A stretch of 44,014 nt of DNA from an uncultured Nitrospiraceae bacterium (GTDB lineage: Bacteria > Nitrospirota > Thermodesulfovibrionia > Thermodesulfovibrionales > Dissulfurispiraceae). Of the stretch, positions 18,885 to 28,854 are shown in pieces (the stretch's first letter is position 1; every line of letters starts with the position of its first letter). The stretch covers positions 1 to 44,014 of the forward strand of contig CAMTVO010000011.1 in NCBI GenBank assembly GCA_947085205.1, written 5' to 3'. Made by a program: the position numbers and the translations under genes. Under the pieces are notes generated by a model. That model made no database searches. It worked only from the letters and a program-made list of their open reading frames with translations, and had not been told where the DNA came from.

Positions 18885-20196
18885 TCTTTTTAAGCCTTAC
18901 AGTGAAAAAGCCGTCCATATCATACTTGTGGGGAAATGTCCTGTAAAATAAATGTCCATCTTTATCCAACACTTCGAAAGGCGCCAGAAAATCATGGTCT
19001 CCTCTTATGATACTAAAATCAGGATTGCCATGTAAAAATTCCTTAATGACCTCTTCCCCCTCTTCAGGCTCTGTAGAGCATACAGAATATACCATAATAC
19101 CACCTGTCTTAAGAAGTCGTAATACAGATCCAAGCATAGTTGTCTGGTTTTCTTTAAACCTGCGGAGGTCTTTTTCGCTGTGCCTGTATTTTACATCAAG
19201 GTTCCTCCTTATGACACCAATTGAGGAACAAGGCGCATCAAGGAGTATTTTATCGAATTGACCAATGCCTTCGACTGATCTCACATCACCATGAATAATT
19301 TTGACAGATTTAATGCCAAGTCTCGAGACATTTTCTTCCAATTGTCTTATCCTTTTCTCTTCTGATTCTGCTGCTATTATCTCTCCTCTGTCCTTCATAA
19401 GTTGTGCTATGTGCGTGGTCTTTCCTCCCGGCGCAGCACAGGCATCCAGTATTCTCTCTCCAGCAACTGGATTCAGGAGATATGCCACAAGCTGTGCAGC
19501 CTCGTCCTGAACAAATAAGTTATGAGTTAAGAGTTCGGACTCTAAAGCCGCAGGAAATTCTTTTAGAACAATCCCGACAGATGAAAACTTAGCCGGATGC
19601 GCTTCTATTCCTTTTTCAGTAAATCTCTTTAATATTTCTTCTCTCTTTTCTTCATCCTCTGCCCTAAGGACAACAGGCGGTATCCTGTTATTTGCCTCCG
19701 CAAGTTCTAATGCCTCTTCATATCCAAATCTCTTTATCCATCTCTTTACAAGCCATCGAGGATGGGATGTCGTGATTGAGACATAATCGACAGGGTCTTT
19801 TATCTGGAGTGATGGAGTAATGGAGTAATGGAGTCTTAGAAAATTTCTCAATACGGCGTTCACTAAGGCTCTTTTCCCTTTACTGAACCTTTCGAGATTT
19901 ACCGCCTCATCCACAACCGCCCACTCAGGCACACGCATATATTTAAGCTGATAAACAGCAGCCCTGAGATTATTTAATGTATTCTGCGAAAGGCCCGAAG
20001 GTTTTTTTAAAAAATCCTTGAGCATCCAATCAAGATAATCCCTGTATCTCAAAACTCCATAAACAATCTCCATAAGAAACGCCCTGTCTCTTTTGTCCAG
20101 ATCGCCCGACAATTCATCGAGCGCTTCCTTTGGCTTTATGCCTTTGTTGAAGATTCTATCGAGGACTGTTACTGCAATATGGCGGGTAGAGGGCAT
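18877..20196 (-). CDS. rsmB: 16S rRNA m5C967 methyltransferase
   Basis: NusB-like N-domain, SHPRW, QDE, DACAAPGGKT, DAPCS, YSVCS. Confidence 0.95.
   Translation of the reverse strand: MPSTRHIAVTVLDRIFNKGIKPKEALDELSGDLDKRDRAFLMEIVYGVLRYRDYLDWMLKDFLKKPSGLSQNTLNNLRAAVYQLKYMRVPEWAVVDEAVNLERFSKGKRALVNAVLRNFLRLHYSITPSLQIKDPVDYVSITTSHPRWLVKRWIKRFGYEEALELAEANNRIPPVVLRAEDEEKREEILKRFTEKGIEAHPAKFSSVGIVLKEFPAALESELLTHNLFVQDEAAQLVAYLLNPVAGERILDACAAPGGKTTHIAQLMKDRGEIIAAESEEKRIRQLEENVSRLGIKSVKIIHGDVRSVEGIGQFDKILLDAPCSSIGVIRRNLDVKYRHSEKDLRRFKENQTTMLGSVLRLLKTGGIMVYSVCSTEPEEGEEVIKEFLHGNPDFSIIRGDHDFLAPFEVLDKDGHLFYRTFPHKYDMDGFFTVRLKKNE
19517..19543. repeat. Heptamer array in frame in rsmB
   Basis: AAGTTAT GAGTTAA GAGTTCG GACTCT; encodes ESELLTHN. 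Confidence 0.6.
19805..19835. repeat. Octamer array in frame in the rsmB interdomain linker
   Basis: TGGAGTGA TGGAGTAA TGGAGTAA TGGAGTC; encodes LHYSITPSLQ; same unit as the 12603 array. Confidence 0.85.
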
Positions 20197-20247
20197 AAGG
20201 AAATCTTGTTATATGTGTTTGAGCTTATGATTACGGCAGGTCGTTTT

Positions 20248-20475
20248 TTAACGGCTGCCTAATTGCTTTGTCTTTTCTCCCTTTGGGTTCAAAATATCGC
20301 GATGGAAGAATCCATGCGAACAATCATATCTAACAATAGGATACCATTTATCTTTTATTTTTGCCTCATATTGAATAACCACATCGGTGACCTCACCTTT
20401 TTCAGCGATGATTTTTATCCTTAACCTATCGTCGCCATCCGGACTTATTTCTTTTGTAAATTCTTTGTTGCCCAT
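20248..20475 (-). pseudogene. Small uncharacterised protein (RYDxxHG motif), probably C-terminally truncated
   Basis: QYEAKIKDKWYPIVRYDCSHGFFHRD, then an abrupt end; truncation is inferred. Confidence 0.45.
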
Positions 20476-20640
20476 TAATATAGCTAATTATAACAGATTA
20501 AAACCTCTTTTTTTCATACCAGCGGGCAGGCTTCCCGACTTCCAGCAGCAGATGAAAAATGTGCCTGTAGGATTTATTTCTTCTTAATGCTTAATTTCTC
20601 AATTAAATAGAACCGTCCCCTTTATTCCCTTTCAAAATCG

Positions 20641-20723
20641 CCCTTTCCGTTCTGCTAACAGTTCCCCCTGTCGGGTCTGTAGAGGACTTTCACCGCCGTG
20701 TGTGTGCGCCCTGCCGGGCGCAC
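20641..20723 (-). mobile_element. 5' fragment of a group IIC intron (start of domain I)
   Basis: GTGCGCCCGGCAGGGCGCAC...GGTGAAAGTCC...GTTAGCAGAACGGAAAGGG, directly after a terminator stem-loop. Confidence 0.85.
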
Positions 20724-20725
20724 AC

Positions 20726-20753
20726 AAAATAAGGGCATGCTATTGCATGCCCT
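20726..20753 (-). terminator. Rho-independent terminator of the barrel/partner operon
   Basis: AGGGCATGC-AATA-GCATGCCCT followed by TATTTT. Confidence 0.85.
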
Positions 20754-20777
20754 GTCGGCAGCTATGAAAATACAAAG

Positions 20778-21413
20778 TTACTCTATTGTTATGGTTACAT
20801 CGGGTTGTCCTGGTGATATATATTCAGGAGCAGCTTCATATTTCAATACTCCGTCAACATCAAAGGATACACTTATTGTCTGGGGGGAACTACCAGGACT
20901 AATTACAAATGACATATTACCTGTCAATACCAGATCGCTGCCTGAAACGCATTGCGGGGTAGCAGGACATGCAGGAATTCCAAGCACTGTAAAGTCAATG
21001 ACAGTAGTAACAGTTGAAGCAGCAGCATAATTACCTGCATTAGCAGTTGCCAGGGTATGTCCACCAATCGACTGCGTGCCATCCGTACAGTTTGTCCCAC
21101 CATTATCGCATGCCTTAATACCGAACTGATTGCTCACCGTCACTCTCCCCTGTGTATATGTTCCATTCGGCAGGGTTACGCCTGATGCCATGTTGCCTAT
21201 GGCTGTATTGGTAGAAGTAGCAGATGCTATGTTGAATGTTGCGGGTGTATCTGTTACTGTTACCCACTGTCCTGTTGTGCTGTTATATGCTTCAACCTTT
21301 TTTACCGTAACATTATATACCATATTAGCGTTATAATCTATGCCCACTTCTGCTGCATTGGATATGCCGGCAAACAAAAACAGCAATATTATTGCCAAAA
21401 CTATGTTTCTCAT
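20778..21413 (-). CDS. Secreted beta-rich hypothetical protein (DUF4382-like)
   Basis: Signal peptide ending SNA-A, Thr/Asn/Gly-rich, four Cys, LPNGTYTQGRVTV motif; starts right after the upstream stop. Confidence 0.75.
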   Translation of the reverse strand: MRNIVLAIILLFLFAGISNAAEVGIDYNANMVYNVTVKKVEAYNSTTGQWVTVTDTPATFNIASATSTNTAIGNMASGVTLPNGTYTQGRVTVSNQFGIKACDNGGTNCTDGTQSIGGHTLATANAGNYAAASTVTTVIDFTVLGIPACPATPQCVSGSDLVLTGNMSFVISPGSSPQTISVSFDVDGVLKYEAAPEYISPGQPDVTITIE

Positions 21414-21414
21414 A

Positions 21415-22338
21415 TTAGTTCCCCCTCTTTATCTTCACTGCAATTCCACCAGATGCTTTGGCATATTGTTCAACAACTATATCCTTTACCCTCTGCACAG
21501 GCTGCAATAGCTTCTGCTTCAAATCAATACCGCCGTCCTTTGTCCTCTTGGTCTTTATAGAGGCCGGCATATCGAGTCCGATGGTAAGCTGGGCATAATA
21601 CCTCTCTGCTTTATTCTCATCTTTCATGGCCTTCAGTTCTATGCCGGTATACTGTGTAATGGGATATATTACTCTTACTTGATATGTCTTTAAATCGTCT
21701 GTATATTTGGCATCAAACCACTGATAACCTGCATAAATCTTCAGGTCTTCAAGCGCTTTTACAGGGATGACAGAACCGCCTATTTCAAAATCATAGCCGT
21801 TCATAACCCTCTGGAAAATTCCTGTAGTTACCTGTTTTTCGTGAGAGTCTCCAAAATATGTGTTCACCCTCGCCTCATATCTTTTGCCCAATGCCTCGAA
21901 ACCAAAACCATATCTCCTGTGGTCATAATATGTTGTGTAATCATAAAAGGCATTCGCACCTAGCATAAGCCAATCAACTACTATGTTTCTGTAGCCCATG
22001 CCGAGGTTGTATGTCTGCTTACCGCCTCTTGTCCTCGCATTAAACTGTGTAAAAATTGCATCCCTGTCTGTCATGTACAGAGGCTGGACAGTTTCCAATT
22101 CATATGTGGGCTTATAATCGTCTTGAATCTCAAACTTAAGATTAATCCTTTTCAGCCAGTCAGGTGCGTCGTCAGGTTTTTTAAGACTGTTGATAAGAGC
22201 ATTTACACCTTTTGCAGTGCTGTTTGACGGTTTATCGGATGTCCCGCTGCCCGAATCCTTTGCTATTAAGTCGCCTGCAAATAAACTGCACGGGATCAAT
22301 AGCAACAAACATAAAACAAGTCCGACCGCTTTTTTCAT
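21415..22338 (-). CDS. Stand-alone inverse autotransporter (intimin/invasin-type) beta-barrel
   Basis: Signal peptide; ETVQPL, NLGMGYR, LGANAFYDY, HRRYGFGFE, NGYDFEIG, PVQRVKDIVVE; ends about 15 aa after the linker motif. Confidence 0.85.
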   Translation of the reverse strand: MKKAVGLVLCLLLLIPCSLFAGDLIAKDSGSGTSDKPSNSTAKGVNALINSLKKPDDAPDWLKRINLKFEIQDDYKPTYELETVQPLYMTDRDAIFTQFNARTRGGKQTYNLGMGYRNIVVDWLMLGANAFYDYTTYYDHRRYGFGFEALGKRYEARVNTYFGDSHEKQVTTGIFQRVMNGYDFEIGGSVIPVKALEDLKIYAGYQWFDAKYTDDLKTYQVRVIYPITQYTGIELKAMKDENKAERYYAQLTIGLDMPASIKTKRTKDGGIDLKQKLLQPVQRVKDIVVEQYAKASGGIAVKIKRGN

Positions 22339-22366
22339 AAATCCCTCCGCTTTGCATTTTTGAAGA

Positions 22367-22395
22367 ATTATAAAAAATTGGGGGGGGGAGGTCAA
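22367..22395 (-). promoter_or_regulatory. Sigma70 promoter with a C9 homopolymer in the spacer
   Basis: TTGACC-TCCCCCCCCCAATTTTT(17)-TATAAT. Confidence 0.8.
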
Positions 22396-22466
22396 CAAAT
22401 TTTTTAAGCAGGCTCTAACTAATTGTCTTACAAATGCATAAAGGAAGTTTATGCTAAACTATTCCA

Positions 22467-23276
22467 ATGAGAAACATCAGACTAACTATCCAGTATGACG
22501 GCACGAATTATAACGGCTGGCAGATACAGCAGTCAGCAGTCAGCAGTCAGCAGTCAGCAGTCAAAAGCCAAAAAAATGTTATTACGATACAGGGAACAAT
22601 TCAGAATGCAATCAAAAAGATAATGGACGAAGACGCAAAGGTTATCGGCGCTGGGAGAACTGATGCAGGTGTTCATGCCATAGAGCAGGTAGCATCCTTT
22701 AAGACATTATCAAAACTTTCAGCTGATGTCATAAAAAAGGCGTTAAACGCCAATCTGCCGGACGATATAAGGATGATGGATGCATCCGATGTAGAATTAG
22801 ACTTCCATCCGAGATTTGACGCAAAAAGCAAAATATATTTTTATGTGATTTCCAATTCACAAATAATCTCTCCGTTTCTGTACAGGTATGCTTGGAGGGT
22901 TCCGCAAATGCTTGATGTTGATGCAATGAAGAATGCAATGGATTTTTTGAAAGGAAAACAGGACTTCTCTACATTCAGGGCAAGCGGCTGCAGTTCAAAA
23001 AATCCTACCAGGACGATATTCTATTTATCGATAGAACTATCGGACTTTATCCACTTTATGGGCATAGGGTTTTCGGAGAGATTTATTAAAATACGCATCG
23101 AAGCGGATGCCTTTTTACGACACATGGTGAGAAACATCGTCGGAACGGTCGTTGAGGTCGGAAAAGGGAAAATTAATGCCGGGAATGTTAGAGAGATTAT
23201 TCTTTCAAAAGACAGAAAGCTTGCCGGGCCAACCGCACCGGCAAGAGGACTGTTTTTACAAAAGATAAACTATTAG
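22467..23276 (+). CDS. truA: tRNA pseudouridine(38-40) synthase
   Basis: YDGTNYNGWQ, GRTDAGVHA, FLRHMVRNIVG, TAPARGL. Confidence 0.97.
   Translation: MRNIRLTIQYDGTNYNGWQIQQSAVSSQQSAVKSQKNVITIQGTIQNAIKKIMDEDAKVIGAGRTDAGVHAIEQVASFKTLSKLSADVIKKALNANLPDDIRMMDASDVELDFHPRFDAKSKIYFYVISNSQIISPFLYRYAWRVPQMLDVDAMKNAMDFLKGKQDFSTFRASGCSSKNPTRTIFYLSIELSDFIHFMGIGFSERFIKIRIEADAFLRHMVRNIVGTVVEVGKGKINAGNVREIILSKDRKLAGPTAPARGLFLQKINY
22527..22573 (+). repeat. (CAGCAGT)x5 plus a degenerate unit, in frame in truA
   Basis: Five perfect heptamers at 22527-22561, then CAAAAGC CAAAA. Confidence 0.97.
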
Positions 23277-24648: not shown

Positions 24649-26061
<1,413 letters not shown>

Positions 26062-27978: not shown

Positions 27979-28854
27979 ATGATAAAATTGCAAACTATGA
28001 TAAGCTTAGGTTTTTCGCCGTGTCCAAACGACACCTTCATCTTTTACGCACTTGCAAACAAAAAAATAGATACAAAAGGGTTTGAGTTTAATTTCATCAT
28101 CGAAGATGTAGAGACGCTGAACCAACTCGCAATGAAAAGGGCGATCGATGTTACAAAAATATCGTGCCCTGCATTCTATTATCTTCAGGACGATTACCAT
28201 TTTTTGAGGTCTGGAGGGGCATTCGGCAGAGGATGCGGACCGCTCTTAGTAATCGAGAGTCAACATAACAAACGACGCACGACAAACAACGCACAACGCA
28301 TGACTCACGATACACGACGCATTAATAAAATAGCGATTCCCGGCGAACTCACTACAGCATTCCTGTTATTAAAGCTTCATTTATCCTCAAACTCATCGCT
28401 CATCACTCGTCACTCATCACTGTCTTTTATTGCCATGCCCTTTCACAAAATCATGGAGGCAGTCAGGGATAAAAAGGTGGATGCAGGCCTCATAATACAT
28501 GAAAGCAGATTCACATACCATGAATACGGACTTGCAAAGATCGTAGACCTTGGAGATTGGTGGGAAAAGGAGACAGGATTGCCAATACCCCTCGGCGGTA
28601 TCATTGTGAAAAAATCCTTATGCATGAAAACTATCAGGACGATTGAAGACCTCATAAAGGCGAGTGTAGAATATTCAATGCTTCACAGGGACGAGGCTAT
28701 GCTTTATATCAAAAAATATTCACAGGAATTATCAGATGATGTAATATTTAAGCACATATCCCTTTATGTTAACGATTATACCCTTGATATCGGCGATGAA
28801 GGAGAGACTGCACTTAATGAATTATTAAAGAGGGCAAAAGGAGAAAAACTATGA
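27979..28854 (+). CDS. mqnD: 1,4-dihydroxy-6-naphthoate synthase (futalosine pathway)
   Basis: GFSPCPNDTFIF, DVETLN, GRGCGP, IIHESRFTY, LPIPLG; start may be 27997. Confidence 0.93.
   Translation: MIKLQTMISLGFSPCPNDTFIFYALANKKIDTKGFEFNFIIEDVETLNQLAMKRAIDVTKISCPAFYYLQDDYHFLRSGGAFGRGCGPLLVIESQHNKRRTTNNAQRMTHDTRRINKIAIPGELTTAFLLLKLHLSSNSSLITRHSSLSFIAMPFHKIMEAVRDKKVDAGLIIHESRFTYHEYGLAKIVDLGDWWEKETGLPIPLGGIIVKKSLCMKTIRTIEDLIKASVEYSMLHRDEAMLYIKKYSQELSDDVIFKHISLYVNDYTLDIGDEGETALNELLKRAKGEKL
28261..28323 (+). repeat. Heptamer array in frame in mqnD (first)
   Basis: ACAAACG ACGCACG ACAAACA ACGCACA ACGCATG ACTCACG ATACACG ACGCATT. Confidence 0.88.
28391..28424 (+). repeat. Heptamer array in frame in mqnD (second)
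   Basis: ACTCATC GCTCATC ACTCGTC ACTCATC ACTG; encodes NSSLITRHSSL. Confidence 0.88.

Follow-up and report, generated by a model that had tools for sequence, protein, structure and literature searches.

Inverse autotransporters of the type Ve class, such as intimin and invasin (PF11924; structures 4E1S and 4E1T), are built on an N-terminal 12-strand beta-barrel, a helical turn and a luminal linker, followed in the same chain by an Ig-like passenger. In intimin, the tip of the linker forms a sheet on the extracellular face (PMC13078405) and the D00 domain (K450-S550) starts at K450 (PMC7718877). Two-gene variants of this architecture have been described. In the ZirT/ZirS(/ZirU) system of Salmonella, and in the class that Heinz 2016 names two-partner inverse autotransporters, an intimin-type barrel gene precedes one that encodes a beta-rich protein exported by Sec; ZirT retains an Ig passenger whose domains its partners resemble (PMC2270342, PMC4943183). 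Heinz 2016 also notes barrels with a very short extension and lists a Pelagibacter barrel with a downstream gene (PMC4943183). The type V pilins of Bacteroidia (FimA, Mfa1) provide a further point of comparison, since the vacated first-strand groove of their transthyretin-like domains is filled by a donor strand provided in trans by another chain; these pilins are lipoproteins of two domains, depend on cleavage by a protease and possess an additional donor strand at the C-terminus (PMC13655056).

Here we analyze a gene pair in a window of 44,014 nucleotides (contig CAMTVO010000011.1 of assembly GCA_947085205.1, from an uncultured Nitrospiraceae bacterium) that a first-pass annotation, made from the sequence alone, had interpreted as an undescribed split inverse autotransporter. 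Given ZirT/ZirS and the Heinz 2016 class, the term undescribed was an overstatement. The elements of the locus are as follows:

21415..22338, minus strand: passenger-less inverse autotransporter barrel, 307 aa (open reading frame, PF11924 match and structural model)
20778..21413, minus strand: exported partner of the DUF4382 family, 211 aa, a predicted transthyretin-like beta-sandwich without the family's first strand
21418..21453, minus strand: C-terminal tail of the barrel (residues 296-307), one beta-strand-like segment and candidate donor strand
22367..22395, minus strand: candidate promoter of the pair, sigma-70-like TTGACC-17-TATAAT with 11 of 12 matches
20723..20753, minus strand: intrinsic-terminator-like hairpin and T run, with a 9-bp stem at 20753-20732

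The pair is flanked by a truA-like and an rsmB-like gene, named from their translations, and its close homologues carry Thermodesulfovibrionales/Nitrospirota labels. The barrel ORF starts at an ATG preceded by a GGAGGG site; read from a TTG further upstream, the protein would measure 327 aa, compared with about 300-315 aa in homologues. A single nucleotide separates the barrel ORF from the partner ORF. The sigma-70 match lies 29 nt upstream of the barrel ORF. Neither promoter-like sites (7 found, 8.1 expected) nor terminator-like hairpins (3 found, 2.4 expected) exceed chance in the region; the hairpin behind the partner is nonetheless kept in relatives at other chromosomal sites, moving along with the cassette. 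The stop and restart between the two ORFs are real: contigs from two runs of one study, one of which may be the source sample, cross the junction without differences, and the same split recurs in 112 other loci. Rfam yielded no match in 20150-22500, and no paralogue was found in the genome, which is 89.7% complete. An element of about 30 nt at approximately 20588-20636 recurs on eight further contigs of this genome, in some cases as inverted pairs, and has no Rfam match; a near-perfect GC-rich palindrome at 20701-20726 adjoins the terminator and has similar pieces at many other places in metagenome contigs; and short tandem arrays of 7-nt (or 14-nt) units are numerous in the window (22527-22563, 25351-25433, 28268-28421 and others), several lying inside housekeeping ORFs and giving rise to low-complexity peptide inserts.

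The reading of the 307-aa ORF as an intimin/invasin-type barrel with a PVxR linker is confirmed by a PF11924 match of 93.6 bits (cut-off 22.3) and by sequence matches to 4E1T and 4E1S; eight NCBIfam type Ve models are matched as well, all far under their whole-protein cut-offs. The predicted structure contains 12 strands (approximately residues 65-254; pLDDT 79), and its top fold matches are intimin/invasin barrels (4E1S: E 1.3e-13, TM 0.76 by target). The chain runs from a leader through a low-confidence spacer to the 12-strand barrel, the helical turn, the luminal linker (PVQR at 280-283 and, in the model, a strand at 289-293) and a short tail, with R283 and E290 of the linker invariant in 34 homologues. 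Barrel, turn, linker and a next strand in the register of D00 are thus shared with intimin and invasin; the present chain, in contrast, stops after that first strand, ending in GGIAVKIKRGN 24 residues past the linker Arg with no Ig-like passenger. The stop that leaves the chain without a passenger, as first annotated, is backed by both contigs and homologues. In a phylogenetic tree built without the passenger-bearing Omnitrophota barrel L244, barrel-only sequences separate from the enterobacterial passenger-bearing ones with 100/100 support, and the neighbours of the barrel in the cluster atlas are PF11924 clusters of about 300 aa.

In an alignment with 19 passenger-bearing relatives the linker keeps its register, and the tail occupies the place where the passenger of these relatives starts. 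On this alignment the tail corresponds to a single strand that lines up with the first D00 strand of intimin, and this register, together with the known start of D00, indicates that the protein corresponds to an autotransporter cut after its first passenger strand. By analogy with intimin, the tail would lie on the outer face of the membrane. Its residues (296-307) are modelled at pLDDT under 50 in the barrel alone, its length past the linker Arg is 17-26 residues in 110 of 120 measured cases, and its alternating hydrophobic strand is conserved across phyla.

To assess gene coupling we compiled 160 barrel loci, the best 80 of 140 from genomes and the best 80 of 227 from metagenomes; the two sets overlap, and together they comprise 123 closed barrel-only ORFs, 21 barrels with passengers, 12 cut and 4 broken. 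A partner gene adjoins the passenger-less barrel in 113 of the 114 loci with at least 300 nt of downstream flank: directly behind it in 111, 67 nt away in one and upstream in one. The remaining locus, from Veillonella (L054), has an exported-type ORF that the partner profile misses. No partner homologue was found beside any of the 21 passenger-bearing barrels. The plain Nitrospirota partner profile recognizes 91 of 117 downstream ORFs, and 112 after iteration; applied to all plus-strand ORFs, the final profile finds eight more, all beside barrel-only or broken barrels. A fused barrel-partner form was seen neither among candidates of 434-2000 aa, which constitutes a weak test, nor on any of the best 150 partner representatives or in the 160 barrel loci, and no other gene family accompanies the cassette in more than 4 of 58 lineages. 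The near-obligate two-gene coupling of a passenger-less type Ve barrel with a separately exported partner, which the first-pass annotation had proposed, is well supported by these comparisons. Some loci show variant layouts: in L036 the barrel is flanked on either side by partner genes, and in L170 the partner lies upstream. One locus (L225) carries a second remnant, made up of a barrel tail and a partner end, behind a complete pair, which suggests cassette exchange.

The distribution of the cassette is patchy but broad. It occurs under at least eight phylum labels, including Nitrospirota, Omnitrophota, Planctomycetota, Campylobacterota, Pseudomonadota, Bacillota, Myxococcota and Hydrogenedentota, although some bin labels may be unreliable, and the partner profile matches 683 clusters at E up to 1e-10. 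Among 301 genomes of the order to which the organism belongs, eight have a PF11924 match and five a partner match. These five are the barrel-only ones, with genes 1-2 nt apart in differing chromosomal settings; the other three comprise one barrel with a passenger and two weak fragments. Searching in the reverse direction, from partner to barrel, we obtained 18 partner-profile matches in 401 Nitrospirota genomes: the six with E under 1e-30 are all barrel-linked, and none of the 12 weak ones is. In 301 Omnitrophota genomes a barrel lies directly upstream in 18 of 23 partner loci, including 17 of 17 with E at or below 2.1e-29, while five weaker ones lack a barrel; some of these loci repeat the earlier genome set. 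The gene-neighbourhood check suggested in the first annotation therefore has a divided outcome, in that the core partner family is barrel-linked and distant relatives occur without a barrel. Distant partner-like proteins with neither the first strand nor a nearby barrel comprise the five Omnitrophota loci and four in Nitrospirota (L178-L181). Three of the latter (L179, L180, L181) encode DUF4382-like proteins of about 200 aa with an N-terminal hydrophobic anchor and no obvious first strand, located in a repeated gene cluster in three Nitrospirota genomes. Orphan partner-like genes were noted at L237 (G793) and at L238, L240 and L242 (G677, G800). The only barrel of G793 (L244), 475 aa with its own passenger, lies elsewhere in that genome, and no barrel was found in G677, G658 or G800, genomes that may be incomplete. 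In G658 (L239:684-1448 and 1339-2052), a DUF4382 protein without the first strand is not accompanied by an inverse-autotransporter barrel. The exported-type ORF immediately before it, possibly another kind of strand donor, terminates in a segment resembling the family's first strand, its best 9-mer on the corresponding matrix with a weak score of 3.6; a barrel-like ORF lies further upstream.

The partner was initially described as a beta-rich protein with a signal peptide and four cysteines, and this description is upheld by the ORFs and by a nearly all-beta model at pLDDT 93. The leader, judged by eye and by a heuristic, is a hydrophobic N-terminus of the cleavable type; the cysteines are at positions 102, 109, 149 and 155, and the chain ends in VTITIE. 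The protein also contains five N-x-S/T sequons (34, 44, 83, 108 and 166), which may reflect its Asn/Thr-rich composition. It matches DUF4382 (PF14321) with 27.4 bits against a curated cut-off of 25, and 50 of 86 partner-family members match it at E up to 0.01. Its neighbours in the cluster atlas are unnamed clusters and one in which 31% of the members carry DUF4382.

What distinguishes the partner from other members of this family is the start of the domain. The Pfam match of the partner begins at position 20 of 136, and in 30 partners scanned all 17 that match do so from positions 14-36. By comparison, the best 30 stand-alone DUF4382 matches start at profile position 1-2, all 30 with a GTLSVSLTDAP-like first strand and nearly all with a lipoprotein-type leader before the domain. 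Compared with stand-alone DUF4382, the partner-family profile aligns with 97.1% probability from template column 29, past the GTLSVSLTDAP strand; of 150 distant partners, 106 match the canonical profile, whose first strand spans columns 14-22, and none of these matches begins before column 19. The first-strand pattern G-x-hydrophobic-x-V-x-L-T-D is absent from the partner. By a rough cleavage heuristic, at most 13 residues precede the conserved Tyr of strand B in 58 of 85 partners, versus about 17 in stand-alone proteins; the present partner retains 12 residues ahead of strand B, which could fill the groove in part. As judged from sequence profiles, then, the partner is a DUF4382-family protein without the family's first strand (strand A). 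The homologous stand-alone proteins of Nitrospirota are lipid-anchored by motif, have strand A in cis, usually carry further domains and have no barrel within 1.5 kb in any of 42 loci; the partner, in contrast, consists of a single domain behind a leader of the cleavable type and lacks strand A. A lipoprotein-type protein of 435 aa (P0062) carries two tandem partner domains; a short strand-like segment in front of each may provide its strand A in cis.

Structural comparison offers a second, weaker view of the same feature. A wide search with the partner model returned MbnP as the best match (Z 4.7, rmsd 4.1, 140 aligned), followed by other weak matches that include PUD-1 (Z 4.3), five Bacteroides fimbrial/adhesion proteins (Z 2.6-4.0) and transthyretin (Z 3.3). 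Transthyretin matches as a whole have Z 3.1-3.9 and superpose at an rmsd of about 4 A over some 100 residues, in rows that represent essentially one protein. Many of the weak matches are to what we take to be transthyretin-like folds. The transthyretin chains align with the model from their residue 19-21 to 122-124. In transthyretin, whose sheets are DAGH and CBEF, residues 20-28 form the A-B loop (PMC6995605), so the model would span strands B to H and skip the inner strand A. Because the Z values are low, the resemblance to transthyretin is a tentative call, and the missing strand is supported mainly by the sequence profiles and weakly by structure. Foldseek searches of the PDB and of viral models returned nothing at E up to 0.001, and neither the partner profile nor the DUF4382 profile gave a significant sequence match among solved structures. 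The fold comparison and the profiles also revise the initial view of VTITIE as a free strand-like tail. This last strand corresponds to strand H of transthyretin, with model residue 191 falling at about residue 123 of the chain, and to the PxLxV strand, which stand-alone DUF4382 lipoproteins keep inside longer chains, and hence it is not a spare donor strand. The partner as the remainder of D00 was considered and ruled out, the probability against the D00-D0 region being 0.1%.

On a matrix of strand A, the tail is the best-scoring 8-mer in 22 of 57 barrels, where about two are expected by position; only 21% of tails, however, exceed the 95th percentile of shuffled tails, and the C-terminal strands of partners score as well (median -1.5 versus -3.9 for tails). 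Overall, the tail resembles strand A of DUF4382 modestly and without specificity. A profile comparison of the barrel with DUF4382 does not pick up the tail (probability 0.4%), and homology of the tail to strand A is not supported by either approach. Across 74 barrel-partner pairs (about 46 effective), the covariation signal is mostly noise, and the second-ranked pair, I303-F60, has no evidential value. The two proteins evolve at very different rates: in 84 pairs with barrels 80-90% identical, partner identity has a median of 68% and a minimum of 30%, indicating that the partner diverges much faster than the barrel.

A lone end strand on the barrel and a single missing strand in its near-obligate neighbour suggest a 1:1 donor-strand complex as the simplest reading. 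We propose that the barrel serves as an outer-membrane anchor whose 12-15-residue tail acts as the partner's missing first strand, holding one partner per barrel on the cell surface, and we assign this reading a probability of roughly 0.55. Both proteins would be exported by Sec and the barrel inserted via BAM/TAM; its tail would emerge on the outer face and slot into the partner as its first beta-strand. As to how the partner crosses the outer membrane, our preferred guess is that the tail captures it before the barrel leaves BamA, and that folding of the partner around the donated strand takes the place of D00 folding in intimin. The genome encodes two Omp85 proteins, TamB and two secretin matches, the TamB gene adjoining the second Omp85 gene (G000:C22:16710-21684), so that BAM/TAM-type and secretin routes are both available. 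In its complete form the proposal describes a widespread, minimal type Ve system in which a barrel cut after its first passenger strand donates this strand to complete a separate transthyretin-like DUF4382 domain, replaces the lipid anchor of that family, displays exchangeable alleles and possibly exports the partner by tail capture; for this full version we consider the odds to be even. The displayed partner would probably be an exchangeable adhesin or surface antigen. Type V pilins set a precedent for a transthyretin-like domain that receives its first strand in trans (PMC13655056); relative to them, the groove would be genetically pre-formed and the donor would be an outer-membrane barrel.

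Other arrangements have to be weighed against this proposal. The pair has the gene order of ZirT/ZirS and could operate in the same way, with the barrel as a channel that releases many partner molecules to the medium and the tail as a plug or brief recognition element. Secretion of ZirS depends on ZirT (PMC2270342), and Heinz 2016 proposes the same for a group of operons (PMC4943183). However, ZirT is a 660-aa protein whose Ig domains are the proposed substrate binders (PMC2270342), and this barrel has none; the conserved linker should fill the 12-strand pore (PMC4943183, citing Fairman 2012; PMC13078405); and the partner is unrelated to canonical passenger domains. ZirT-like secretion would also leave the missing first strand unexplained, and we regard it as unlikely. 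Still less probable in our estimation is a periplasmic complex, in which the tail stays unexported and the partner, located in the periplasm, caps the barrel or serves it as an accessory factor. Once exported, the two proteins encounter each other in the periplasm; no gene for a dedicated exporter lies near the pair, and so short a tail offers little folding energy for pulling anything through. Against this location stand the conservation of the linker and its tip strand, a tip that lies on the outer face in intimin (PMC13078405), and the fast divergence of the partner, which fits exposure to the outside.

The remaining two readings we hold to be highly improbable. The first annotation had envisaged strand complementation into a fibre, with the barrel tail nucleating a chain in which each partner donates its C-terminal strand to the next. 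Its complementation half remains plausible, now with a specific missing strand, and its fibre half does not. Type V pili do polymerize by strand exchange of transthyretin-like domains (PMC13655056), and the last strand of the partner alternates as the tail does and scores like it on the strand-A matrix. That strand, however, is integral to the fold, which makes a fibre built from it unlikely, and the partner is a single domain without a lipobox or an extra donor strand, so that it resembles a tip subunit; no conserved protease, chaperone or tip gene occurs among the neighbours. Equally improbable is that the partner folds alone and binds the outer loops or works beside the barrel, the tail being a D00 remnant maintained by the partner's ribosome-binding site. 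The partner alone is already modelled with confidence, which counts against docking, and barrel-less homologues without strand A exist. The Arg-Gly codons of the tail do double as this ribosome-binding site, the Arg codon being AGR in 33 of 41 tails versus 41% elsewhere, and the overlap may account for part of the conservation of the tail. Yet the alternating hydrophobic strand persists across phyla, and of the 19 lineages with a partner start more than 6 nt away, 14 retain the Arg.

As regards its relation to known systems, the module works like the two-partner inverse autotransporter class, with a barrel gene followed by that of a co-encoded protein Sec-exported by sequence pattern, minus Ig domains of its own and minus a partner resembling them. 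What is new is the partner as a DUF4382 protein without its first strand, with the barrel tail as the likely donor. The gene pairing is well supported; docking and export are inferred. We found neither a pair of barrel-only and DUF4382 genes, nor a donor-strand model for one, nor a link between DUF4382 and transthyretin in the literature searched, which covered few subscription papers. How an inverse-autotransporter barrel with a filled pore exports or holds a second protein has been a puzzle since ZirT/ZirS, and the pair analyzed here comes close to the smallest possible version of it: a barrel, one strand and one domain of 190 residues. It provides a first structural and functional lead for DUF4382, a family that appears in a single paper of the literature searched, in a setting where close relatives carry swapped partners, a pattern that a surface antigen would be expected to show. 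Should the docking hold, the pair would constitute a natural two-piece tool for surface display.
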